From: an uncultured Gammaproteobacteria bacterium
GTDB taxonomy: Bacteria; Patescibacteriota; Patescibacteriia; Magasanikbacterales; GWA2-37-8
Assembly (NCBI GenBank): GCA_964535515.1
Contig: CAZHTA010000005.1
Location: 13-64,012 of the forward strand
Length of the DNA stretch: 64,000 nucleotides
Reading direction: 5' to 3'
The translations under genes were made by a program, and so were the position numbers. The notes under the pieces were generated by a model that worked only from the letters and a program-made list of their open reading frames with translations, was not told the origin of the DNA and ran no database searches. This document shows, piece by piece, positions 1,868-42,943 of the stretch; position 1 is the stretch's first letter; every line of letters begins with the position of its first letter.

Positions 1868-2806
1868 ATGGTGATTGATGGTGATCCAAAAAATATTCCA
1901 CCTGAAGTTGTTATGCCGGAGATTAGAAATATAACTATTGAGGGCATCTCTGACGAGGCTAAAACAACCAAGGAATGGTTATTTGCTAATTACCGATTAC
2001 AGGTAATTAGTGCTTTGGATAAGAGCAACTTAATTACCAATGAACGTTGTGATAGTGTAATTAATCGTTGTGAGGAAGTTTTAAATAAAACGATTGATAC
2101 TTTTGCACCACCTATTCAGGAAGAGGTTGTCAGCGCGTTGTTGGATATGATTCGTTTGCACGCTGGTCAAAAAACTCGTCTTAATGGAGAATTGGTAGTT
2201 GAACATTTATTAGAAGTGACAAGTTTGTTGTTTAATATAGTTAAAGATCCTAAACCAGAAGAAGTGGTAGTGGCACTTTTACACGATGCGATTGAAGATC
2301 GATCAAGAGAGATCGTGCGGGCTGCTGATTTTGGTAGCGACGTTCATGTTGCACGTTTTCGTACTGTCCAAGAACAAGCATTGGCAGAAGCACAAATGTC
2401 TTATGTCTATGGAGAAAAAATACAAGAAATGTTATTTAGCTTGACTAAGCCAGATTATAGGAAGGAAGCGATGCGTTTATCTGGTCGTTCGGAATTGGAA
2501 GAAGGGGAATTTGATTTAATGAAGAATAATATATATGTTGATTATTTAAAAAAAGCTTTGGATAATCCCGATGTGGCATTGATTAAGTTGGTTGATTTCA
2601 TTTCTAATGCAATTGATGTTAATGAGATACCGGACAGTGAAAAAGAACGAAGAGAGAAGATAAAAAATAAATATAGCGGTGGTTTTCCGATAGTAATAGA
2701 AAAAATACAAGACCCAGTTTTTTCTGCTCGTTTGAAAGATCCAGAAAAATTAGCTCATCAAGTAGCTACTGTTTTTGAAAGGTCTTATCATCAAGGATTA
2801 CTTTAA
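1868..2806 (+). CDS. HD-domain protein (RelA/SpoT-like metal-dependent phosphohydrolase fold)
   Basis: LLHDAIED motif resembling HD domain; 312 aa; in operon with rfb genes. Confidence 0.4.
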   Translation: MVIDGDPKNIPPEVVMPEIRNITIEGISDEAKTTKEWLFANYRLQVISALDKSNLITNERCDSVINRCEEVLNKTIDTFAPPIQEEVVSALLDMIRLHAGQKTRLNGELVVEHLLEVTSLLFNIVKDPKPEEVVVALLHDAIEDRSREIVRAADFGSDVHVARFRTVQEQALAEAQMSYVYGEKIQEMLFSLTKPDYRKEAMRLSGRSELEEGEFDLMKNNIYVDYLKKALDNPDVALIKLVDFISNAIDVNEIPDSEKERREKIKNKYSGGFPIVIEKIQDPVFSARLKDPEKLAHQVATVFERSYHQGLL

Positions 2807-2823
2807 TTTGTTTTAATTATTCT

Positions 2824-2849
2824 CCGGCCTTAAATAGGCCGGTTTTTTT
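2824..2849 (+). terminator. Rho-independent terminator after HD-domain gene
   Basis: ccggccttaaataggccgg hairpin followed by T7 run. Confidence 0.7.
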
Positions 2850-2859
2850 ATATCAAATA

Positions 2860-2888
2860 TTGACAGAAGTGAGTTTTTTTAGTATAGT
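2860..2888 (+). promoter_or_regulatory. sigma70-like promoter TTGACA-17-TATAGT driving GC-rich ORF
   Basis: ttgaca(2860-2865) 17-nt spacer tatagt(2883-2888); AAGGAGG RBS at 2950-2956 before ATG 2961. Confidence 0.55.
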
Positions 2889-2960
2889 GAGCTGTTCTAC
2901 CCGTGGGGATGGGTGGACATCACGCGACTGGAGTATATCCAGCGCTAGCAAGGAGGAGGC

Positions 2961-3896
2961 ATGAAACTCAGAGAGATTCTGGTGGTCGAAGGGCTTACCA
3001 GGAACATGGGCGAACTTCTCTCGTCGGTGGTCGAGGCCGTGTCGGCTATCGGCTACCTCGAGGGCATGCGGCTGGTCATCGAAGAGTACAAGCCGGCTGC
3101 TGCCAAGCGCCAGCCGCTGGATGGCGTAAACGTGTCGGAAGAGTCGGTCAGGGCCTTTCGCGCCTTTTCGGGTGCTATGACCGCGCTTGCCGAGGGATGC
3201 CACATTCCCGTGGTGCAGGCCCTGTACCTGCACGATGCGGCGAGTGGACTCAGCCGGGGCAACGGCAACCTGCCCGACCAGCAGGTTGAGCTGAATCGGC
3301 ACGCTCTGCTCGTTCTCGGTGGTGTCTCTAGCGTTCTGCGTGGGGACGACTGGTGGTGCGTCTACGAGAAAGTGATGGTCGGCCTCATGGAGGCCGGGCA
3401 CGTCGCTTTCAATGAAGACGTCTTCCGGTCGATCATCGAGTCCATGAAGAAGAACCACGCCAAGGATGCGGCTGGTCGCCAGGCTCATCTGGCCGAGCGG
3501 CTCGCCGAGCAGGATCGCCTAGACGAGGCGATCGAAGTGCTCGCGTCGGTGGAGGGCGACACGTACTCCGCTCCGAACCAGCGTGGGTATGCGCTCGGGC
3601 TCCTGGAGAGGTACAGAGCCGTCGCCGTTACTCGGCGTGGTACGGGCACCTCGCGTGAGCGTCGCGCTCCGTCTCGTCGCAAGAAGGGCAGCGGTGCGAC
3701 CAAGGAAGGCGATCCCGAGCCACCACCAATAATCCGTCATCGCGCTTGGTACGGCACGATTGGCGGTACGTTCATTAGTACTAGGAGGGATAACGTCGTG
3801 GTCCCCACCCACGACTTACTCCAAAAGAGCATCAAATTATTGGTGCTTTTTTGTTTGTTTTTTTTATTTAAAAATGGTATATTATTCCTACTATGA
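2961..3896 (+). CDS. hypothetical protein encoded in GC-rich foreign-like cassette; 3' end appears truncated and reads through into AT-rich backbone/terminator
   Basis: High GC3 codon bias in this frame, canonical SD+ATG; C-terminal 25 aa (LLQKSIKLLVLFCLFFLFKNGILFLL) are translated from AT-rich terminator/promoter sequence. Confidence 0.5.
   Translation: MKLREILVVEGLTRNMGELLSSVVEAVSAIGYLEGMRLVIEEYKPAAAKRQPLDGVNVSEESVRAFRAFSGAMTALAEGCHIPVVQALYLHDAASGLSRGNGNLPDQQVELNRHALLVLGGVSSVLRGDDWWCVYEKVMVGLMEAGHVAFNEDVFRSIIESMKKNHAKDAAGRQAHLAERLAEQDRLDEAIEVLASVEGDTYSAPNQRGYALGLLERYRAVAVTRRGTGTSRERRAPSRRKKGSGATKEGDPEPPPIIRHRAWYGTIGGTFISTRRDNVVVPTHDLLQKSIKLLVLFCLFFLFKNGILFLL
3826..3852 (+). terminator. Rho-independent terminator downstream of GC-rich cassette
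   Basis: agagcatcaa-attat-tggtgct hairpin (one G-U) followed by T-run. Confidence 0.6.
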
Positions 3897-6035: not shown

Positions 6036-7494
6036 AGTAATGTTAAAGAAATATTTTAAAATTATTGCTAAAGTAGCAAAACAAGAAAAAACACCGATAT
6101 ATTTGGTTGGTGGTTTTGTGCGTGATTTTTTAATGGGCAAGACAGAAAAGAAAGATGTGGATTTTGTTGTGGTAGGAAGCGGATTGGAGTTTGCTAAAAA
6201 GTTAGATGAGGCATTAAGCGAAGAAGGCAGTTTGGTAGAGTTTCCCGACTTTGATACCGCTCGCTATGTTATTGGTGAGGGTGAAGAACAGTTGGTGTTA
6301 GAATTTGCTGGTGCTCGATCAGAAAGCTATCGTAGCGAATCGCGTAAACCTCAAGTAGAAGCTTCGACATTAGAAGATGATCTTAAACGTCGCGATTTTA
6401 CAGTTAATGCCATGGCGGTGCCAGTGGAGGCATTCACTGGGCTTCGCAGTCCCACAAAAACAACGATCAAAAAACATTTAGTTGATCCATTTAATGGTCA
6501 GGACGATTTAAAAGAAAAAATATTACGGACACCAATGGATCCGGATATTACTTTTTCTGATGATCCGCTTCGAATGATGCGGGCAATTCGTTTTGCGGGA
6601 CAGTTGAATTTTGCTATCGATCCAAAGACTTTAGAGTCAATTTTTAATAACCGAGAACGGATTAAGATAATTTCGGCTGAGCGGGTGCAAGAGGAATTGG
6701 TTAAAATGATGAAAGTAGAAAAACCATCGATTTGTCTAACCCTTCTTTTCCAAACCCAGCTTTTAGACTTAATTTTACCAGAAGTCTCACGATTAGATGG
6801 GGTAGAGGAAATCTATGGTCATCAGCATAAAAACAATTTGATTCATACTTTTAAAGTGGTGGATAATATTGCAGAACGCACAGACAAGGTGTGGCTACGT
6901 TTGGCGGGATTGTTCCATGACATTGGTAAATCAGATACTAAGCAATTCGTGGAAGGCACAGGTTGGACTTTTTATGCCCATGAACATTTGGGTAGAAAAA
7001 TGACACATCAAATTTGTAAACGTTTGCGTTTTTCTAAAGAACAAACAGCTTACTTAACTAAGTTAGTTCGCTGGCATCAGCAGCCAATTAGTTTGATGGA
7101 TGATGGGATAACCGATTCGGCAGTGCGTCGTTTGATTGTTAATTTGGGAGAAGAATTAGAAGATCTTCTGGTTTTAGGTGTATCTGATATTACTACCGGT
7201 AATCCTTACAAACTTAAAAAGCGTCAGGAAAATTATCTACATCTTAAAAAGCGAATTGAAGAAGTAATGGAAAAAGACAAGCTTCGGGCTTTCCAGTCGC
7301 CTGTTAGAGGGGAAGAAATTATGCAATTGTGTGGTCTTAAACCAGGACCAACGATTGGTAAGATAAAAGAAGCGATTGAAGAAGCGATTCTAGAAGGGGA
7401 AATACCGAATGAATATGAACCCGCGCTAGAATATTTTAATAAAATAAAAGGAGAATATTTAGCTAAGACAGAAGAGTGGGAGCGGATAAAGTAG
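6019..7494 (+). CDS. cca: CCA-adding tRNA nucleotidyltransferase with HD domain
   Basis: PIYLVGGFVRDFLMG...DVDFVV polymerase-beta head motif, HD domain, 491 aa; start may be the downstream Met (overlaps pilT by 17 nt). Confidence 0.8.
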   Translation: MLKKFKVMLKKYFKIIAKVAKQEKTPIYLVGGFVRDFLMGKTEKKDVDFVVVGSGLEFAKKLDEALSEEGSLVEFPDFDTARYVIGEGEEQLVLEFAGARSESYRSESRKPQVEASTLEDDLKRRDFTVNAMAVPVEAFTGLRSPTKTTIKKHLVDPFNGQDDLKEKILRTPMDPDITFSDDPLRMMRAIRFAGQLNFAIDPKTLESIFNNRERIKIISAERVQEELVKMMKVEKPSICLTLLFQTQLLDLILPEVSRLDGVEEIYGHQHKNNLIHTFKVVDNIAERTDKVWLRLAGLFHDIGKSDTKQFVEGTGWTFYAHEHLGRKMTHQICKRLRFSKEQTAYLTKLVRWHQQPISLMDDGITDSAVRRLIVNLGEELEDLLVLGVSDITTGNPYKLKKRQENYLHLKKRIEEVMEKDKLRAFQSPVRGEEIMQLCGLKPGPTIGKIKEAIEEAILEGEIPNEYEPALEYFNKIKGEYLAKTEEWERIK

Positions 7495-7504
7495 TTATGG
7501 ATTG

Positions 7505-7533
7505 TGCCGAGGGTGATTTTGTGGTATGATAAA
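7505..7533 (+). promoter_or_regulatory. sigma70-like promoter TTGTGC-17-TATGAT
   Basis: ttgtgc cgagggtgattttgtgg tatgat upstream of AbrB-like gene. Confidence 0.5.
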
Positions 7534-7553
7534 TATGATTAATCATATTTATA
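7534..7553. promoter_or_regulatory. perfect 20-bp palindrome AAATATGATTAATCATATTT (candidate operator)
   Basis: 10+10 inverted repeat with no spacer located between -10 element and start codon of AbrB/MazE-like gene. Confidence 0.55.
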
Positions 7554-7559
7554 CGTATT

Positions 7560-7787
7560 ATGGCTAAAACAAAAGAAAAAAAGATAGATTGTGGCTTTGG
7601 AACAATCTGTGGAACAACTACCGTGGGTGAACGTGGACAGGTAGTTATTCCTAAGGAAGCGCGAGAAAGATTGAAATTTAAGACGGGGGATCGTTTTTTG
7701 GTTATTGAACATTATGGGAAGATTGTTTTAATACCAGAAAAGGAAATGCGTACTATGATTGAACAAATTACTAAACATTTAAAATGA
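7560..7787 (+). CDS. AbrB/MazE/SpoVT-type swapped-hairpin DNA-binding protein
   Basis: GQVVIPKEARERLKFKTGD matches AbrB-N/SpoVT domain consensus; 75 aa. Confidence 0.6.
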   Translation: MAKTKEKKIDCGFGTICGTTTVGERGQVVIPKEARERLKFKTGDRFLVIEHYGKIVLIPEKEMRTMIEQITKHLK

Positions 7788-7796
7788 TATTAATAT

Positions 7797-9533
7797 ATGA
7801 ACTTAAGTTTTTTACGTACTAAAAAATTCTACCTGATTTTGGGTGGAGTAATTATTGTCGGTTTAATCGGTTGGAATTCTTATCGTAAAGCCAATATGCC
7901 GGTGGAATACGAAACGGTTAAAGTTGAGCGTGGTAATTTGGTACAAACTGTTGAAGTGACTGGTAAGATTGAATCAGTAACCGACCTATCATTACGATTT
8001 GAAATACCAGGTACAGTTGATGCGATAAAGGTAACAGAAAATACTCAAGTAAAAGCAGGTGATTGGTTGGCTAACTTACGTTTAGCAGAATTAAATGCAG
8101 CAGTGGCTCAAGCTAGTGCTAATTTGAATCAAAAGTTGGCAGGTCCGTCGACTGAGGATCGAAGTTACTACAAAGCAGCAGTTGATTCAGCTCGTTCTTC
8201 TTTAGAGCAAACACGTATAGACGCACAGTCTACTATTACTGCCGCGGAAGCTGTTTTAGAGACGGCAAAGAATAATTTAAAATTTGCTGAAGGAGGAGAG
8301 AATAGTCAGATTGTAAACAATGCCTATGACTCCGCCGTAGCGACCTTACAAACAGCTTTGGGCACAATCGATAGTGGTCTTACACAGGCTGATAATATTT
8401 TGGGAGTTGATAGTACTTTGGCTAACGATAGTTTTGAGTCGTATTTGTCAATTCTAGATAGTTCTAAGTTGTCATTTGCTAAAACAAACTATCTCATTGC
8501 CAAATCAGCGCGTGATCAAGTTAGACCTTTAATACTTGCTTTAACTACTGGTAATGATCGAGCAAAAGTTGATAGTGCATTGCCGTTGGCTGAGACAGCG
8601 CTTTCAAAAAATATTACTTTGTTGTCATCGGTTGGTGAGGTATTAACTGCTACTCCGCCAGTTGGTACTTTAACCCAAGCTGTGTTAGATGGACACAAAA
8701 CAACAATTGATGCCGCTCGTACTGCCGCTACCACTCAATATACCAGTGTGATTGTTAGGCGTCAGGCAGTGGCGGATTCAAAAAATAGCTATTCCACATA
8801 TTTGGTAGCATACAATAAAGCAGAAAAAGATTTGTTAAGCGCACAAGATAACGCTAATAATCTGATTGCTTTAAAACAGGCAGTATATGATCAAGCAGTT
8901 GCTAGTTTTGATAGCAAAGTTAATCCACCTCGTGAAATTGATGTGGCTGCTTACCGTGCCATTCTCGCATCGGCGGTGGCTAATCGCGACAAAGCGATTA
9001 TTCGCGCTCCGATTGATGGGTTGGTGACTAAAGTTAACAAGAAAAAAGGTGAATATATTTCTGGTGCGGAAACAATGATTCAATTGTTGTCACCGCATTA
9101 TGAAATTAAAGTGGACATTCCAGAAACTGATATTCCAAAGTTAAAATTGAATGATGCCGCTAAAATTACTTTAGATGCTTTTGGTAAAGATGTTAAATTT
9201 TCTGGGAAAATTGTAAATATTGAACCAGCTTCAACTGAAATTCAGGATGTTGTATATTACAAAGTCACCATTACATTAGACGATACTGAACAGGCGATTA
9301 AACCAGGTATGACAGCAAATGTTACGATTACTACTGCGACACGTGAGAATGTTTTGTTCATCCCGTATCGTACCGTTAAAATTAACGGAGAAAAAACTGT
9401 CCGAGTATTAGAAAACAATCAACCTAAGGATACAGTGGTTAGTATTGGTTTGCGCGCTGATGAAGGGAAGGCCGAAGTGTTGTCCGGTTTAAATGAAGGG
9501 CAAGTTGTTGTGGTGAGTGTAAAAACAAAGTAA
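7797..9533 (+). CDS. HlyD-family periplasmic adaptor (membrane fusion protein) with long coiled coil
   Basis: N-terminal TM, biotinyl-lipoyl-like half domains, Ala/Gln-rich coiled coil, C-terminal beta-barrel; followed by MacB-like ABC genes. Confidence 0.7.
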   Translation: MNLSFLRTKKFYLILGGVIIVGLIGWNSYRKANMPVEYETVKVERGNLVQTVEVTGKIESVTDLSLRFEIPGTVDAIKVTENTQVKAGDWLANLRLAELNAAVAQASANLNQKLAGPSTEDRSYYKAAVDSARSSLEQTRIDAQSTITAAEAVLETAKNNLKFAEGGENSQIVNNAYDSAVATLQTALGTIDSGLTQADNILGVDSTLANDSFESYLSILDSSKLSFAKTNYLIAKSARDQVRPLILALTTGNDRAKVDSALPLAETALSKNITLLSSVGEVLTATPPVGTLTQAVLDGHKTTIDAARTAATTQYTSVIVRRQAVADSKNSYSTYLVAYNKAEKDLLSAQDNANNLIALKQAVYDQAVASFDSKVNPPREIDVAAYRAILASAVANRDKAIIRAPIDGLVTKVNKKKGEYISGAETMIQLLSPHYEIKVDIPETDIPKLKLNDAAKITLDAFGKDVKFSGKIVNIEPASTEIQDVVYYKVTITLDDTEQAIKPGMTANVTITTATRENVLFIPYRTVKINGEKTVRVLENNQPKDTVVSIGLRADEGKAEVLSGLNEGQVVVVSVKTK

Positions 9534-9865
9534 TACTAAAAAGTAAATTAAAAAAACAAAAAATCCCTTTGGTTAAGGAATTGTATGATGAATGGGCACC
9601 AGGAGGAGAAGTGGTGCCAGTGTTCGGACCGCGTCCGATTAATGAGCTAGGCCGGTTTTTCGCCCGCGCGCTAGACACTCAAACACTGACACCACGACTC
9701 CTCTGGTGGTGAGAGAAGAGACTGTGTGTGTAGAAGGGCTTTCCTTCAGGGGGATAACGTATGCGACCGTCATCCACTACTACACGCAGATCTTCCTTCT
9801 CTCAAGCGGGAGCATCTCGACGCGGTTTGGGCATGGGCCGTCTGCGCGTAGGAAGATCTCCCGAG

Positions 9866-9913
9866 TCTGGGAACATGGGGATTTGAACCCCATGAATTCG
9901 TCGATGTTCCCAG
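9866..9913 (-). ncRNA. tRNA-like minihelix (8-bp acceptor stem + 12-nt linker + T-arm GGGGUUCAAAUCCCC, no D or anticodon arm)
   Basis: Minus strand CUGGGAAC-AUCGACGAAUUC-AUGGGGUUCAAAUCCCCAU-GUUCCCAG-A folds as acceptor/T-arm coaxial stack. Confidence 0.3.
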
Positions 9914-9925
9914 GAAAGAATAAGG

Positions 9926-9999
9926 AGCGGGAGACTGGAATTGAACCAGTGGCCTCCACCCTAGCAGGATGGCACTCTGTTTCTCTGAGCTACTCCCGC
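9926..9999 (-). tRNA. atypical tRNA-like gene (anticodon GCU, short variable arm, D-loop lacking GG) - possibly pseudo-tRNA or non-canonical tRNA
   Basis: Manual fold: acceptor GCGGGAG/CUCCCGC, anticodon stem CCAUC/GGUGG loop CUGCUAG, T-arm ACUGG-UUCAAUU-CCAGU; D-loop AGAGAAACA unusual. Confidence 0.45.
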
Positions 10000-10071
10000 G
10001 AAAGTAGTTAAATACTATCAAATATATTAAAAATGTAAAGATTGTGTTGTGGATAAGTAAAATCAATTATT

Positions 10072-10794
10072 ATGCCTTTAATTAAAGTTGAAAATTTAAC
10101 CAAACAATACGAAAACGAAGATGTGATAACACCAGTGTTGCATGGTGTGAGTTTTGAAATTCAAAAAGGGGAGTTTGTGGCCATTATGGGCCCGTCTGGT
10201 TCAGGCAAGTCAACACTAATGCATATCTTGGGTTTTTTGGACAAGCTTAGTGCTGGTAAGTATTTGTTTGATGGAAGGGACGTTAGTGGTTTAAGTGATG
10301 ACCAATTAGCAGAAATGCGCAGTGAGTCCGTGGGTTTTATTTTTCAGGCGTTTAATCTTTTGCCACGTACAACTGTTTTAGAAAATGTAATGTTACCGTT
10401 GGTCTATACCAAGTTGACTCCAGCAGCGCAAAAGTTAAAAGCAAAGCAGGCAATTGTATCAGTTGGTCTAGAACATCGTTTAGAATATTATACTAATCAA
10501 TTATCTGGTGGCGAAAAACAAAGAGTAGCCATTGCGCGTGCTTTAGTTAATAATCCGGCAGTAATTTTTGCTGATGAACCAACTGGCAACTTGGATTCTA
10601 AATCAGGTTTGCAGGTAATGAAAATTTTGCAAGATTTAAATGAGCAGGGTCATACAATTATATTAGTTACGCACGAACGTTATACCGCTGACCATGCTAA
10701 GCGTATTATCCGGGTACGTGACGGCGAAATTGAAGAGGACTCATTGGTGGCTGTTCGTCAAATTGCTGCCACTAACGGTGAGCTTAAAAAGTAG
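10072..10794 (+). CDS. ABC transporter ATP-binding protein (MacB/LolD-like)
   Basis: Walker A GPSGSGKST, signature LSGGEKQRVAIARAL, Walker B, H-loop; 240 aa. Confidence 0.85.
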   Translation: MPLIKVENLTKQYENEDVITPVLHGVSFEIQKGEFVAIMGPSGSGKSTLMHILGFLDKLSAGKYLFDGRDVSGLSDDQLAEMRSESVGFIFQAFNLLPRTTVLENVMLPLVYTKLTPAAQKLKAKQAIVSVGLEHRLEYYTNQLSGGEKQRVAIARALVNNPAVIFADEPTGNLDSKSGLQVMKILQDLNEQGHTIILVTHERYTADHAKRIIRVRDGEIEEDSLVAVRQIAATNGELKK

Positions 10795-10805
10795 CAATAA
10801 ATTTT

Positions 10806-12047
10806 GTGAATTTTCTTGAAAACATCCATGCAGTTTGGCATTTGATTGGTCGTAATAAAATTCGATCATTTTTAACTATGCTTGGGGTCATCGTCGGTAT
10901 CATGTCAGTGATCGTTGTAATGTCGGTGGGGGCGGGAGCACAAAGTTTGATTTTAAATCAAGTAAAAAGCATGGGATCAAATCTGGTTGGTATTTTACCG
11001 GGTAAATCCGATAGTAATGGCCCGCCAGCTTCGGCTATGGGTGTTGTTATTAAAACTTTAACGGCAGCAGATGTTAATTATATAGTAGCGAGCAAAGACT
11101 TTCCGCATATTATTGCTGGTACTGGTTATGTACGGGGGAGTGACACAGTTTCTTGGGGCGACAATAAAACAGATACTAGCTTTGTTGGTGTATCGGCCGG
11201 GTTATTAGAAATTGAAGATACTAATGTTTCGCAAGGAAGATTTTTTTCTGAGGAAGAAGATCGCGTACAAGCGCGGGTAGCGGTAATAGGCAGTGCGGTG
11301 GCAAAAGATCTGTTTGGTGAAAACAATCCATTAGGTCAACAAATTAAAATTAAAAAATCTAGTTTTAGTATTATTGGTGTGATGACTCAACGTGGTAGTA
11401 GCGGTTTTCAAAATCAAGACAATCAGATCTATGTACCAATTAACACCACACAAAAGATATTGCTTGGGATTGATTATGTTAGTTTTGCGCGTTTTAAAAT
11501 TGATGCAGCGGAAAATGTTAATGATAGTATGGGTTATATCACTCAGGTTTTGCGTGAGCGTCATCGTATTGACGACCCAGAAAAGGATGATTTTTCTGTG
11601 CGTTCAATGGCTCAGGGGGTAGAATCGATTATTAAAATTACTGATGCACTAAAAATATTTTTAACCGCAATCGCCGCCATATCTCTTTTGGTTGGTGGAA
11701 TTGGTATTATGAATATTATGCTTGCGGCGGTAGAAGAGCGAACACGCGAGATTGGTTTACGCAAAGCTGTTGGGGCAAAAAATTACAATATTATTGTTCA
11801 ATTTTTGATTGAAACGGTGATGATTACTTTTATCGGGGGCCTTATTGGAATGGCGTTGGGAATTTTAATTTCCGTGACTGTTGCTAAGATTGCTGAGGGC
11901 ATGGGGTATAACTGGGATTTAGTGATTTCGATTTGGTCAATTTTGTTAGCGGGTAGTGTCTCGATTGGGATTGGTTTGTTGTTTGGTATTATTCCGGCGA
12001 AGAGAGCGTCGAAATTAAATCCAATTGAGGCTTTAAGATACGAATAG
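10806..12047 (+). CDS. ABC transporter permease, FtsX/MacB family
   Basis: N-terminal TM, large periplasmic domain, C-terminal 3-TM FtsX-like domain; 413 aa. Confidence 0.8.
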   Translation: MNFLENIHAVWHLIGRNKIRSFLTMLGVIVGIMSVIVVMSVGAGAQSLILNQVKSMGSNLVGILPGKSDSNGPPASAMGVVIKTLTAADVNYIVASKDFPHIIAGTGYVRGSDTVSWGDNKTDTSFVGVSAGLLEIEDTNVSQGRFFSEEEDRVQARVAVIGSAVAKDLFGENNPLGQQIKIKKSSFSIIGVMTQRGSSGFQNQDNQIYVPINTTQKILLGIDYVSFARFKIDAAENVNDSMGYITQVLRERHRIDDPEKDDFSVRSMAQGVESIIKITDALKIFLTAIAAISLLVGGIGIMNIMLAAVEERTREIGLRKAVGAKNYNIIVQFLIETVMITFIGGLIGMALGILISVTVAKIAEGMGYNWDLVISIWSILLAGSVSIGIGLLFGIIPAKRASKLNPIEALRYE

Positions 12048-12048
12048 T

Positions 12049-13299
12049 ATGAAGATGAATTGGTCAGCAGTACAACTTGCCTGGAATGCTCTGAAAGCGA
12101 AAAAAACTCGTTCTATTTTGACTATTGTTGGTATTAGTATTGGTATTGCAATGGTAATTGCCATCATGGCTGCTGGGCGTGGGTTGGATTATTTAATTAT
12201 GGGAGAATTGGAAGTTTTTGGTTCAGATACAGTTAGCATCGAAGTTAAGGTGCCTAGCACAAAAAAGAATTCTAGTGAAAATGCCACGAGTCAGGCACAG
12301 GGCGTCGCCATTACCACTTTAAAGGATAAAGACTTGGAAGATGTTAGTAAAAATCCTGGTATTGTAGCGGCCTATGGATATGTTATGGGGCAAGAGGTGG
12401 CTTCTTACGAAGGTCAAAACAAGACAGTGTTATTAGTAGGTGAAGGGTATAATGTGCGCGAGGTGGAAAAGTTTGATTTGGCAGAAGGAAGGATGTATAC
12501 GCAAGAAGAGCAAGAATCGACGACTCAGGTGGCGGTTTTGGGTTGGGGTGTGAAGGATTATTTTTTCGGTGATAATTCGCCGCTTGGTCAGATGGTGTAT
12601 ATCAAAGGCAAACCTTTTAGAGTTGTTGGTGTGGCAGCAAAACGGGGAGCGGTTTTTTCGATGGACATGGATAACGTGATTTTGTTACCCACTAAAACAA
12701 TGCAAAGAAAGATTTTAGGCACTGATTATTTTCAAGCTATTATTGGTAAATTAAAAGATGTAAATAAGGCTGATGCTACAGTGTTGGATTTGGAAGATGT
12801 TATTCGTGCTAATCATAAAATTGACGATCCAGCAAAAGATGATTTTGCTATTAATACTATGGCCGAGGCAATTGGTATTTTATCAAGTGTAGTCGGAGGT
12901 ATTACTCTGTTGTTAGTAGCGTTGGTTTGTATTTCTTTAGTTGTTGGTGGAGTGGGTATTATGAATATCATGTATGTTTCTGTTACTGAACGAGTTTTTG
13001 AAATTGGCTTAAGAAAAGCTCTGGGAGCGAAAAGCAAAGATATTCTTTGGCAGTTTTTATCTGAAGCTATTATTCTAACTGTGCTTGGTGGTTTGGTTGG
13101 TATTGTTTTGGGGTTAATTTTGGCGCTCATTATATATTTTACCGCTACATATTACGGTCTGTCTTGGATTTATTCGGTTCCGATTTCTTCAATATTTTTA
13201 TCAGTTGGATTTTCCGGCTGTGTCGGCTTGGTTTTTGGTCTTTATCCAGCCAAAAAAGCTGCTAGTTTAGAGCCAATGACCGCACTTCGGAAAGAATAG
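12049..13299 (+). CDS. ABC transporter permease, FtsX/MacB family (second copy)
   Basis: Same architecture as preceding gene, 416 aa, 1-nt intergenic gap. Confidence 0.8.
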   Translation: MKMNWSAVQLAWNALKAKKTRSILTIVGISIGIAMVIAIMAAGRGLDYLIMGELEVFGSDTVSIEVKVPSTKKNSSENATSQAQGVAITTLKDKDLEDVSKNPGIVAAYGYVMGQEVASYEGQNKTVLLVGEGYNVREVEKFDLAEGRMYTQEEQESTTQVAVLGWGVKDYFFGDNSPLGQMVYIKGKPFRVVGVAAKRGAVFSMDMDNVILLPTKTMQRKILGTDYFQAIIGKLKDVNKADATVLDLEDVIRANHKIDDPAKDDFAINTMAEAIGILSSVVGGITLLLVALVCISLVVGGVGIMNIMYVSVTERVFEIGLRKALGAKSKDILWQFLSEAIILTVLGGLVGIVLGLILALIIYFTATYYGLSWIYSVPISSIFLSVGFSGCVGLVFGLYPAKKAASLEPMTALRKE

Positions 13300-19750: not shown

Positions 19751-22700
19751 GTGTTTATTCTTAACCATCGCTCTATGCGTCTCACACGTCTTTTGCGAGC
19801 AGCCCTACTTGGAGTTGGGGTAGCACTTTTTGTGTTACTTTTAGCACCATCAGCAAAGGCTGCTTCAGTGACAGAATTAACTCTGGCACAAGTTCAGTCA
19901 GAAAGTTTGACAATTTTAACTTTTGAAGACAGCAAGATTGATCTGTTGTCAGGTTATTGGGATACAAAAGGAGTAAAGTTTTTTTCTAACAAGGGAAAAG
20001 CAATTTATGTTAGTAGTTATAACCGAGGCGGTGAGGCGACTGCATCAGGAGAGTATGCAATTGCTAATTATGCTGCTTATCCTAGTACCAGCGCTAATGA
20101 TCCGTTATTTATCGAATTTAAAAATCCAGCTAAATCAGTTGGTTTTTATTATGGTAATGGTAGTGGTTCTGAAACGGCGACAATCAGAGTGTATGGTAAA
20201 AACAATGTCTATCTTGGCTCTTTAACCAAAAGTAATGTCACTGATCCAGTAACCAATTTTGTTGGTTTAACTGCCAGTGAGTCAATTACGTATATTTCTT
20301 TAGATTACGGCAATACGTTACTAAGTGAGTCAATTGATAGTCTGGTTTTCTCAGCCGCTCCTTTGCAAGAGAAAACTTGTTCAGAAACTGATGGTGGCAA
20401 TAGTAAGTATTTAAAGGGTAAAAATACTATTTACAACACTGATGGCAGTATTTTCACTTCCTCAGAAGATTATTGTAAAGATTCACAGACGGTTACAGAA
20501 ATTACCTGTAATGGTGGTCAATGGGATATAACGTACGAGACTTGTGATGGTAAATGTCAGGATGGACAATGTGTAAAAGCTAATCCGACCTGCTCTGATA
20601 CTGATAATGGTTTGTTTTACAATGTGTTTGGTAAGACAACTGGCTCGGATGAGGTAACTAAAGTAAATAGCTCATATTCTGATTCTTGTGGTGGATATAT
20701 CGGTGAACAAGGAAAAGATAAAGGTGACTATCTTGCGGAAAAACATTGTAGTGGATCAACGGATGCCCCATATGTGCATACACAGTGGTATAAATGTCCA
20801 AACGGATGCCAGTCGGGTGTTTGTTTAGCAACTCCAGCTGTAACAGCACAAAAGACCTGTTCTGAGACTGACAATGGCAACAACAAGAACTTAAAGGGTA
20901 AAAATACTATTTACAACACCGACGGTAGTGTCCTTACTACTGCCGAAGATTATTGTAGAGACGGACGCACTGTTACAGAAATTACCTGTAATGGTGGTCA
21001 ATGGGATGTAACATACGAGACTTGTGCTGGCAATTGTCAGGAAGGGCAGTGTGTAGTTACTACTGAAGCAAGTAAGCCTGATCTTGGTATGTATGGATTC
21101 CTCACCATCGGTAAAGATCGTCGTGAAGTTAAATGGGGTGAAACCATTACTTTAACACCAGCAGATACAGTTTATGGTACAAAATCCGCCTGGTTTGATG
21201 TATCTTACACTCAAAAGAACTATGGTCTTGCTGCCGCTTATCGATATTACAATTATTTAACTTTTGACGGTAGTCTTTTGGCTTCCAAGTATACTGGTCA
21301 GCTATATATTGACAGTAAGTCTGAAATTAAAGGAAGAGTATTATTCCCATCAAAAGTTGGTGTACATACTTTAAAGATTAAGATTGATAACAATAACGTG
21401 GTTAATGAAGTAAGGGAAGATAATAATGATTTTGAAGTTACGGTTAAATTAGAAGGGTTTGATACACCAAATTACAATTTAAATGCTAAGCCGGTAATTT
21501 ATCAACCAGAATCTAATCAGACTTTAACCAACTATCCACGTCAGGCATTCTTGAGTTGGTCTAGTGTGAAGGATGCTAATAATTACAACATTGAAGTTGC
21601 TTGTGATGTCTGCAATTTCCCAGAATGGACATCAGTACAAAAGACTCAGTCGGCAACTAACTATTCTACTACTCCTCCTTTAGCGGGTGATAATCGTTTC
21701 CGCGCTCGTGTTCAGGGGGTTTACCCAGATGGTAGTACTGGCGCTTGGTCAGAATGGAGATATTTTAAATATGATACTTCCAAATATTCTGACAATGGAC
21801 CGCGTTGTAGTGATGTTAAGGGCGGCAATGTGACCTTCTTGGTTTGTGAAGATTTTGCTGTGGATCATTTTTGGAGTGGATCCAAGATTTACTTGAATAG
21901 TTTTGATAACAATGGTGCTAGTGTAACTTTAAAGAATCTTAGTGGTACTAGTGCTTATTTGGAAAAGGGTAAAATGTACACTTACAATGTCACTAACAAA
22001 CCAGGTAAATATGTTGAAGTAACATATCTTGGTACTGGATCTTGGGGTAGGGCAGTGGTTAAAGTTAATTCCAATACCACCTATGAAAACTCTAATGATT
22101 ACCTATCTCAATCCAAGTGTGTAAATAGTTGGGGTAGTGATGGGTTGTATAGTTTGTGTGTAGGAAAGACTTTGTACCATAACGATGGCTGGACGATTAC
22201 CAATGTACAACAAAACAGTCAATATGTTTGGTTGAAAGTAAAATGGGCAAATAAAACTACCAAACAAATCAAAGTTAAGCTTAACACTATTAAAGAGATA
22301 GACAAACCAGGCGTAGATGAGTCCGTTGAGTTCAGCTATGTTAAATACCAGTCTAAATCTAAAGCTTTAATTAAAGTTAGTACTAACTTTGCTGAATCAG
22401 ATATTGTAGTTGATGAAACCATCCCAAACGAAACGGGTGTTGTCAGTGGTAACATCTATGTTGATTTCGGAGTGGGAGTAAATGACTATCCTGATCACAA
22501 GGATAATAGTAAGACTAAAAATTTAACCTACGGCTACGTAAATATGTACACTGTGGCTGTGGAGGATGGTAAATTTAAAGTTAAAGGTGTAAATCGTAGT
22601 CAGGTTAGCAGTAGTAATAATAACGGAGCGATGTTTAGTGTTACTCCTGGCCAGATAGTTGATTTTGCTGGTTTTAAAACATTGAGTGGTGCAATTAATG

Positions 22701-41689: not shown

Positions 41690-42943
41690 ATGTTGATTCC
41701 ACGCGAACGCATGCTCGAAAGGTTCATGCGCTACGTGCGCATGGACACCCAGTCGGTTGAGGGAGCGGAGTGCTACCCCTCGACCGAGAAGCAGAAGACC
41801 TTGCTGCGGCTGTTGGTCGACGAACTGAAGGCGCTGGGCCTCGCCGATGCGGCCATGGACGAGTGGGGCTACGTCTTCGCGACGTTGCCGTCGAACTTGC
41901 CGGCCGACCAGGCCGCCAAGTTGCCGGCCATCGGTTTCTTGGCGCACGTCGACACGTCGCCGGAAACGAGCGGCACGGACGTGAAGCCGGTGATCTGGAG
42001 GCACTACGATGCGGGCACCAACCTCGTGTTGCCCGGCGACCATTCCCAGGTGATCACCTGGGACGGTAACCCCGTGCTGCAGCGATACGTCGGGCAGGAC
42101 ATCATCACCAGCGACGGCACCACCCTGCTGAGCGCGGATGATAAGGCGGGCATCGCCGAAATCATGACCGCCATCGAGGTGCTGTTGGCGAATCCTGACA
42201 TCCCGCGCCCCACCATCCGTGTGGCGTTCACGCCCGACGAAGAGGTCGGTATGGGTACTGCCCATTTCGATCTCGCGAAGTTCGGCGTGCAGGCCGCCTA
42301 TACCCTCGACGGCGGCGAAATCGGTGAGGTTGAATGCGAGACATTCAACGCTTACCTCGCGACCTTCACGGTCGTCGGCAACAACTGCCACCCCGGCTAC
42401 GCCAAGGGGAAGATGGTCAACGCCATTCGTCCCATGGCAGCTATCGTCGAGGCCTTGTCCGACCAGCCTGCACCCGAGACCACCGAGGGTCGCCAGGCTT
42501 ACCTGCACCCGTACGATCTCAAGGGTGAAGTTGCCAAGGCTACGCTCAAGGTGCTCATCCGCAGCTTCGATGAAGCAGGTATCGAGTCGCGCAAGATGTT
42601 CCTCGCGGGCGTGCGCGATCGCGTAGCGGCGGCGTTCCCTCAGGCGAACATCGTTCTCGAGATGGTCGAGCAGTACAAGAACATGAAGGTCTACGTGGAT
42701 CAGGATCCGCGTGTCATGGCCTTCGCCACGGAAGCCATCATCAAGGCTGGTCTCCAGCCGATCACACGCGAGATCCGCGGCGGTACGGATGGCTCGAAGT
42801 TGTCCGAGAAAGGACTGCCTTGCCCCAACCTGTTCGCGGGTGGGCACAACTTCCACTCGAAGTTGGAGTTCATCCCGGTGCAGTCTATGGAGAAGGCCGT
42901 GGAGGTCGTGGTCTACCTGGTCGAGCGCTGGGCCAACGCCTGA
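41690..42943 (+). CDS. pepT: peptidase T (tripeptide aminopeptidase, M20B family) in GC-rich foreign-like cassette 5
   Basis: Strong collinear similarity to E. coli PepT recalled from memory (HVDTSP, GADDKAGIAEIM, AFTPDEEVG, IRGGTDG, GLPCPNLF, GGHNFH); high GC3; GGGGGAGG RBS. Confidence 0.8.
   Translation: MLIPRERMLERFMRYVRMDTQSVEGAECYPSTEKQKTLLRLLVDELKALGLADAAMDEWGYVFATLPSNLPADQAAKLPAIGFLAHVDTSPETSGTDVKPVIWRHYDAGTNLVLPGDHSQVITWDGNPVLQRYVGQDIITSDGTTLLSADDKAGIAEIMTAIEVLLANPDIPRPTIRVAFTPDEEVGMGTAHFDLAKFGVQAAYTLDGGEIGEVECETFNAYLATFTVVGNNCHPGYAKGKMVNAIRPMAAIVEALSDQPAPETTEGRQAYLHPYDLKGEVAKATLKVLIRSFDEAGIESRKMFLAGVRDRVAAAFPQANIVLEMVEQYKNMKVYVDQDPRVMAFATEAIIKAGLQPITREIRGGTDGSKLSEKGLPCPNLFAGGHNFHSKLEFIPVQSMEKAVEVVVYLVERWANA

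Follow-up and report, generated by a model that had tools for sequence, protein, structure and literature searches.

What is the role of a perfect palindrome that stands directly in front of the gene of a small DNA-binding protein, with exporter genes following behind? This question is raised by one locus of contig CAZHTA010000005.1, in the stretch of 64,000 nucleotides that was analysed as a whole and that we call the window, where the palindrome (7529–7552) precedes the gene (7560–7787, + strand) of a 75-aa AbrB/SpoVT-type protein. A previous examination of the letters and open reading frames only, called here the sequence-only reading, had proposed an autoregulatory operator located between the promoter and the AbrB-type gene and controlling the HlyD/MacB-type genes, and the comparative evidence gathered here supports that proposal. 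We estimate at roughly 0.77 the probability that the site, which is better described as an array of hexamers, is the autoregulatory operator of the 75-aa protein, acting as a repressor that would occlude the -10 element and the transcription start. With somewhat lower confidence, we also consider it probable that this regulator represents a widespread AbrB subfamily that reads an almost invariant GTATGA hexamer in 9-bp-phased, orientation-interchangeable arrays and controls exporter or detoxification-type operons, and that this same subfamily spans Patescibacteria, Armatimonadota, Omnitrophota, Firmicutes, and archaeal metagenome-assembled genomes (MAGs).

The first step is the palindrome itself. 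The 20-mer AAATATGATTAATCATATTT was confirmed in its sequence, and it was located at 7531–7550, three bases to the left of the position 7534–7553 first assigned to it. Its perfect pairing runs beyond the initially described 10+10 inverted repeat to 12+12, with the arm ATAAATATGATT facing AATCATATTTAT, so that direct reading gives a perfect 24-bp palindrome, ATAAATATGATTAATCATATTTAT, at 7529–7552. This is the only perfect 12+12 palindrome of the window, and when the window (38.5% GC) was simulated 300 times with a first-order Markov model, arms of at least 10 were found at 0.13 per simulation and arms of at least 12 at 0.0067 per simulation. A functionless palindrome arising by chance in AT-rich intergenic DNA is for us practically negligible as an explanation: the window has a GC content of 38% and does contain four palindromes with arms of at least 8, but a 12+12 arrangement is expected at that rate of only 0.0067 per window, and relatives with fully diverged flanks have kept the arms. 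Allowing up to three mismatches, the search of the window gave no second copy, so the further copies of the dyad that had been raised as a possibility are absent from it at this stringency. Two other perfect palindromes were observed elsewhere in the window, namely, the GC-rich TCCCAGGTGATCACCTGGGA (10+10) at 42044–42063 and AAAGTTAGTACTAACTTT (9+9) at 22373–22390.

The second step concerns the conserved unit, which, as predicted from the alignments, is made of three 9-bp-phased hexamers and is not a spacerless dyad; the palindrome would represent two-thirds of an operator extending over three GTATGA-type hexamers at 7524–7548. Hexamer 1, GTATGA (7524–7529, + strand), overlaps the -10 element, for which reason it was overlooked by the sequence-only reading, and it lies outside the palindrome as drawn there. 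It is followed in direct orientation 9 bp further on by hexamer 2, ATATGA (7533–7538, + strand), the left arm of the palindrome, thus forming the phased pair 7524/7533, and the predicted transcription start at about 7537 falls within this second hexamer. Hexamer 3, TCATAT (7543–7548, + strand), the right arm, is inverted across the 4-bp variable spacer TTAA (7539–7542), forming the inverted pair 7533/7543 at 10 bp start-to-start. The spacer corresponds to columns 57–60 of alignment A2, made with 24 relatives of 37–88% protein identity, and these columns are without conservation, reading TTAA, TTTT, TTTA, ATTT, CAGA, TTAT, AAGA, ATAA, TAGT, AAAA, TAAT, TGAA, and others in the relatives. The palindrome is perfect here because its variable spacer happens to be the self-complementary TTAA, and therefore the pairing first described is correct for this genome but does not amount to a conserved spacerless dyad, given that its central 4 bp are variable.

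The promoter is intimately associated with these hexamers. An extended -10 element (TGg plus TATGAT, 7522–7530, + strand) is read in the sequence, and its TATGAT (7525–7530) is invariant, or nearly so, in the 24 aligned relatives. Further upstream, 17 nt 5' of the -10 element, the -35-like hexamer TTGTGC (7502–7507, + strand) matches TTGACA at 3/6 positions and aligns with the TTGAC or TTGnnn of the relatives (A2 columns 20–25). The palindrome is found between the -10 element and the start codon, as had been said, but it is not wholly downstream of the former, since TATGAT overlaps its first two bases; the hexamers at 7524–7548 cover TATGAT, and so the site and the core promoter of the regulator's transcription unit overlap. 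When the whole window was scanned for hexamer pairs with a position weight matrix (PWM), the sole site was that at 7524–7548, where 7524/7533 scored 19.0 bits and 7533/7543 scored 20.6 bits, with a maximum of 15.0 bits in 20 shuffles. The runner-up, the direct pair AAGATACGAATAGTATGA at 12035–12052, equals the shuffle maximum with 15.0 bits and is located at the stop/start junction of two MacB permease genes, being probably a chance by-product of a conserved ending in RYE plus the stop codon.

The third step is conservation, for which we compared 176 loci of relatives: 80 loci came from species-representative genomes and 80 from metagenomes, and the other 16 were contigs carrying the closest homologues. 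The conservation in relatives, on which the proposal had been staked from the beginning, was found: the element is kept in every Magasanikbacteria-like relative, where TTGACn, 17 nt, and a TATGAT overlapping GTATGAtaaGTATGA-NNNN-TCATAyTTAT precede the regulator gene, and the flanking DNA is unalignable. In A2, the columns GTATGAtaAgTATGA and TCATAyTT, which cover the three hexamers, show little or no variation, and the conservation of a TTGA-like -35 reaches at least 70%, whereas the four central columns and the remaining flanks have diverged.

When the analysis was extended to 161 distinct homologue genes, the hexamer [GA]TATGA/TCATA[CT] reached a density of 16.8 per kb within the 100 nt preceding these genes vs. 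0.80 per kb in the background (21-fold), the latter being 791 kb that belong to the same loci but lie at a distance from the start of the regulator gene. The start-to-start distances between hexamers peak at 9 bp in direct orientation (46 + 39 = 85 pairs) and at 10 bp in inverted orientation (38 pairs), followed by 18, 19, 27, and 28 bp. The background, with 49 times more sequence, contains just 11 phased pairs of the same three classes, and these are mostly intergenic and placed ahead of operons with an AbrB-domain gene. A strict phased pair is present in 87/161 upstream regions and in 39/44 of those where an adaptor (HlyD-type) gene follows. As for the arrays (n = 85), 46 have two hexamers, 36 have three, and 3 have four; TTGAC is found upstream in 62 of them, the first hexamer most often beginning 22 nt after it, on the -10 element, and the start codon follows the last hexamer after a median gap of 15 nt.

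Does this array work as DNA, or could it rather be an RNA element? The palindrome could form an RNA hairpin acting as a terminator or processing site of the upstream CCA-adding enzyme gene, or as a 5'-leader controlling translation of the regulator, and there are two features that speak in its favor: the segment 7525–7562 folds at -9.5 kcal/mol (z -3.2 vs. shuffles), and in the closest clade, the variable arm position is occupied by A..T, G..C, or G..T, never by A..C, as would fit wobble pairing on the + strand. This hint of covariation in an RNA stem was rejected by the family-wide comparison, where the two half-sites are nearly independent (G..C 21, G..T 7, A..T 4, and A..C 4), including four A..C cases. 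In addition, most lineages carry direct repeats, which are unable to pair with each other, and hexamer 1, despite being conserved, stays outside the stem. Regarding a terminator, there is no U-tract after the palindrome, and a terminator scan found none there; regarding a leader, the predicted start falls inside the left arm, and a transcript beginning at 7537 is unstructured (z +1.3). Moreover, in the closest relative (locus L161), the CCA gene ends about 330 nt away, and yet the promoter and palindrome remain beside the regulator gene. We consequently regard the RNA hairpin as quite improbable and return to the operator as a site on DNA.

Which protein, then, would bind this operator? The AbrB domain is the one product shared by the site-bearing loci, whatever their phylum, neighbouring genes, position in the operon, or domain fusion, so that, as judged from the compared loci, the site tracks the AbrB domain and not the transporter. 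Distant Patescibacteria have two to four direct hexamer repeats, such as TTCATACtatTCATACcaaTCATAT, which come after a consensus TTGACA-17-TAnnnT promoter and ahead of the start codon. In Omnitrophota and Armatimonadota, the site is found before homologues that precede a TolC-type outer-membrane factor gene, followed by adaptor, ATPase, and permease genes; it is also found before homologues preceding DrrA-type ATP-binding cassette (ABC) ATPase genes, before those preceding ABC1-kinase genes in Bacillales, and, in archaeal MAGs, before those preceding DJ-1/PfpI and metallo-beta-lactamase genes. In five Firmicutes-type contigs (L063, L093, L095, L111, and L124), an ABC operon closes with the gene of a fusion between an XRE helix-turn-helix and the AbrB domain, and the site, TCATAC-N3-TCATAC, is found at the promoter of the operon, about 1.6 kb upstream. 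It may still be argued that the hexamers serve another protein, such as a global regulator, and that the AbrB-type protein binds elsewhere or does not bind DNA at all, because classical AbrB is loose in its specificity (PMC3025583) and an invariant hexamer is unusual for its family. Nevertheless, the invariance of the hexamer is paralleled by that of the putative DNA-contact loop of the protein, and this, together with the AbrB domain being the single product common to such diverse loci, makes another binder unlikely in our opinion.

Some variants of the site were also observed. Four loci from high-GC Fimbriimonadales and other MAGs (L025, L131, L060, and L061) have the variant hexamers GCATGA, TCATGC, and GCATAC with the 9-bp period kept, and the protein loop GERGQVVIPAEAR is unaltered in these same loci. 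In L162/L163 (223–369), the conserved operator is about 75 nt further away from the start codon of the MAK... reading frame, and there is a degenerate second copy beside that start; the public gene call of 100 aa (P0006) for these loci begins just 3' of the operator and is probably an N-terminal over-extension.

The fourth step is the protein, encoded at 7560–7787 on the + strand, with the signature GERGQVVIPKEAR and a C-terminal helix ending in ITKHLK. Its original description as a 75-aa DNA-binding protein of the SpoVT/AbrB fold agrees with the domain models, since it exceeds the curated thresholds of both PF04014 (MazE_antitoxin/SpoVT-AbrB; E 9.9e-12, 45.1 bits with a cut-off of 24.7) and TIGR01439 (AbrB; E 2.5e-13, 49.5 bits with a cut-off of 28.3), and by these thresholds, it belongs to the SpoVT/AbrB superfamily. 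The AbrB domain is a single stretch of residues 20–62, preceded by a mostly conserved cysteine (C17) and followed by a tail of about 13–16 residues. From 5.8 billion proteins, 32 homologues were recovered, which form a tight family with the consensus ..FGxICGTTxVGERGQVVIPKEAREKLKLKxGDRFLVIEHxGKxVLxPExEMRxMxxxITKHLK. The residues G23, R25, G26, Q27, V29, P31, R35, G43, and V48 are invariant in the homologue alignment A1, with R25 and R35 being so across 26 homologues; the loop GxRGQVVIP is invariant among the regulator homologues, and GQVVIPKEaR aligns with GRVVIPKEIR of SpoVT (profile, E 1e-5), in the part that corresponds to the DNA-contacting region of AbrB/SpoVT. By sequence, the nearest solved structures are 2glw (uncharacterised, 92 aa; E 1.2e-6), SpoVT (1e-5), and AbrB (3e-4), and the AlphaFold2 monomer model has a mean predicted local distance difference test score of 77.8, with the order beta-alpha-beta-beta, as expected, and then a helix at residues 60–72. 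A profile of the family run on 1.84 billion proteins, with clusters at 50% identity, retrieved 572 representatives with E<=1e-10, a number that rises to 5340 when E<=1e-3 is allowed, mostly of 70–90 aa. Some members of about 145–150 aa (for instance, P0034, P0053, P0081, and P0088) carry two tandem copies of the domain per chain, recalling 2glw and MraZ, and this suggests the repeated evolution of covalently linked pseudo-dimers.

This protein had alternatively been proposed as the antitoxin-like half of a degenerate toxin–antitoxin module, in which case the palindrome would be an operator of conditional cooperativity. The best Pfam name is in fact MazE_antitoxin, and there are weak NCBIfam matches to doc_partner, MazE, and PrlF, but all of these equivalog matches are below threshold: 23.4 bits for doc_partner (cut-off 55.9), 21.7 for the Deinococcus MazE (65), and 17.1 for PrlF (125). 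Furthermore, there is no adjacent toxin gene, the neighbours here and likewise in the relatives being the CCA-adding enzyme and HlyD-type adaptor genes; the tail beyond the AbrB domain has merely the 13–16 residues already mentioned; and the order regulator–adaptor–ATPase–permease is conserved in MAGs of Magasanik-, Uhr-, Doudna-, and Saccharibacteria. On these grounds, the antitoxin idea was abandoned as very improbable.

How, then, would the repressor work on its operator? We suggest that the 75-aa protein forms swapped-hairpin dimers, each DNA-binding unit of which would read one hexamer, and that these dimers would assemble further in a flexible manner, probably by means of the conserved C-terminal helix. 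Such a flexible linkage by the C-terminal helix would explain how direct and inverted arrangements can replace each other from one lineage to another. The binding of dimers of dimers to a dyad, as formerly envisaged, does not hold as the general geometry, given that most lineages use direct repeats. The bound complex would exclude RNA polymerase from the promoter, and since the hexamers span the -10 element and the predicted start at about 7537, the site is in the classical position for promoter occlusion. The regulator gene is the first of its transcript, and the outcome would hence be negative autoregulation, with the expression of the co-transcribed adaptor gene being likewise set by the regulator; ancestrally, the latter would have governed the entire MacB-type ABC exporter operon.

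Several observations weigh against this operator and its mode of action. A strict phased pair is absent from 74/161 upstream regions, although some of these are accounted for by fusion proteins, variant hexamers, or operators placed further upstream. The -35 element is weak, with its 3/6 matches, so that the promoter call depends on homology plus the extended -10; because of this weak -35, a consensus promoter scan of 7300–8000 detected no promoter, and the start at about 7537 is a prediction from the -10 position alone. On the side of the protein, no sensor domain is evident in its 75 aa by which repression could be relieved, and Foldseek on the monomer model gave AbrB, MazE, and C68 as best matches with weak E values of 0.3–1, due to the monomer model standing in for an obligate swapped dimer.

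The operon around the regulator gene has a conserved order and one peculiarity. Upstream there are a PilT-type ATPase gene and the CCA-adding enzyme gene, the latter ending at 7494, and the nearest genome matches, which are Magasanikbacteria MAGs, also have the PilT and CCA genes upstream, so that a Magasanikbacteria-like patescibacterial origin of the window is probable. Downstream, and 9 nt past the regulator stop codon, begins the HlyD/YknX-type membrane-fusion (adaptor) gene (7797–9533, + strand; PF13437, PF16576, and TIGR01730), followed by the ABC ATPase gene (10072–10794, + strand; PF00005) and two MacB-type permease genes (10806–12047 and 12049–13299, + strand; both with PF12704 + PF02687). 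This gene set, with PF12704+PF02687 occurring twice, is that of a MacB-type (type VII) ABC exporter with its membrane-fusion protein. The location of the regulator just ahead of the HlyD/MacB export genes was correctly recognised in the sequence-only reading. The order AbrB–HlyD-type adaptor–ABC ATPase–MacB–MacB recurs in Magasanikbacteria, Uhrbacteria, Doudnabacteria, Saccharibacteria, and other Patescibacteria MAGs.

The peculiarity, on which the sequence-only reading is silent, is a 540-bp insertion (9534–10071, - strand), specific to the present genome, that splits the operon between the adaptor and ATPase genes, which in close relatives are separated by 5–25 nt (about 180 nt in L175). First comes a well-formed class-I tRNA(GCU) (9999 to 9924) that reads Ser AGY codons but is odd in lacking a long variable arm, in its Gly-like acceptor stem (GCGGGAG/CTCCCGC) with U73, and in a D-loop devoid of GG, and which among the tRNAs of the window most resembles Gly(ccc). 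It is followed by a tRNA-like acceptor/T-arm minihelix (9911 to 9869), a GC-rich structured segment of about 300 nt with 55% GC (9575–9868), and a terminator-like hairpin near 9560. The whole stretch of 370 nt folds at -156 kcal/mol (z -8.35). Apart from the tRNA, the insertion matched no Rfam family at E<=1; it showed no similarity in the 176 loci, elsewhere in the window, or in phage records, and its minihelix had no match in viral contigs. Two readings are conceivable for it: a so far undescribed structured RNA, freed by tRNA-type processing, or a small mobile insertion. Given that its RNA genes are on the opposite strand and accompanied by a terminator-like hairpin, the ATPase and permease genes are probably outside the control of the regulator promoter in this genome. 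A second operator ahead of the ABC ATPase gene was not found by the PWM scan, and the candidate of 10000–10074 as a copy of the promoter region (7495–7562) was rejected, because 46% of shuffles score equally. In L161, the closest relative, the spacer between the CCA and regulator genes (2672–3000, - strand) has 329 nt vs. 65 nt in the window and contains a "tRNA-Ser(tga)" of 75 nt that lacks a long variable arm, another tRNA-like sequence uncalled by ARAGORN, and a GC hairpin with a T-run. The window insertion and the L161 spacer together point to odd class-I tRNAs with Ser-type anticodons at different intergenic positions around the operon in two close relatives.

An autoregulatory operator is as such an ordinary finding; what this locus adds is a widespread and strikingly conserved pair of regulator and operator. 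If the proposed operator and its subfamily are correct, the pair would be among the most conserved across bacteria and archaea and would provide the first experimentally tractable transcription factor and operator for Patescibacteria. Gene regulation in these bacteria, also called the candidate phyla radiation (CPR), is almost unknown because they are mostly uncultured and have few recognisable transcription factors, and a group-wide pair predictable from the sequence, made of a 75-aa protein and 30 bp of DNA, offers a handle on it. AbrB-type proteins are, besides, the classic example of proteins that recognise DNA in the absence of a clear consensus, and a subfamily with a strict hexamer under the same spacing rules would help to explain how swapped hairpins read sequence. 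In annotation, such genes would be labelled as probable repressors of exporter operons, whether MacB-type or not, for which the MazE antitoxin label is unsuitable. We found in the literature no description of the subfamily, of the GTATGA hexamer, or of an AbrB-type regulator dedicated to MacB-type operons, within a coverage that is incomplete and thus leaves room for an earlier description.

How does this system compare with those already known? The exporter has the three components of the MacAB/YknXYZ-type tripartite exporters, with the HlyD/YknX-type adaptor, the ABC ATPase, and the MacB_PCD+FtsX permease models all matched, and it differs from them in its duplicated permease and in the splitting of the operon by the insertion. 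The antitoxins MazE, PrlF, and VapB (AbrB-type) autoregulate by means of palindromic operators that overlap their promoters. They belong to the same fold family as the regulator, which in contrast has neither an adjacent toxin partner nor a long toxin-binding tail and has a conserved linkage to transporter genes.

MraZ is the first-gene repressor of its own operon and binds four phased GTG(G/T) boxes, one unit per box (PMC12957436). It is likewise an AbrB-superfamily protein encoded first in the operon, but each of its chains has two tandem domains and it assembles into rings of eight or nine subunits, whereas one domain is present here; its boxes are all direct with a 10-bp period, in contrast to the 9-bp period and the orientation interchangeable between lineages of the hexamers; and its operon is the dcw cluster of cell division, instead of an exporter. 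The 75-aa regulator has neither the two tandem domains nor the first position in a dcw cluster by which MraZ is recognised.

AbrB represses its own gene, and AbrB and Abh of Bacillus subtilis, which are usually repressors, share with the regulator the DNA-binding domain family (PF04014 and TIGR01439); the repressor action is a prediction in our case. The published AbrB sites are TNCCA-WWWW-TGGNA inverted repeats, or tandem pairs joined by 4–5 W (PMC3025583), and the geometry is the same here, GTATGA-N4-TCATAC and GTATGA-N3-GTATGA corresponding to the inverted or tandem AbrB half-sites, respectively. The differences are that TATGA is invariant across phyla here, whereas AbrB has no adequate consensus; that a C-terminal helix of 13–16 residues takes the place of the AbrB tetramerisation domain of about 40 residues; and that the regulator, with one site in 64 kb, has the appearance of a local regulator in contrast to the global AbrB. 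The C-terminal multimerisation domain and TGGNA-type sites of AbrB/Abh proper are thus replaced in this 75-aa protein by a single-helix tail and GTATGA. In summary, the regulator, as predicted, is neither AbrB proper, nor MraZ, nor an antitoxin, but combines an AbrB-like site geometry with the place of an operon-leading autorepressor.

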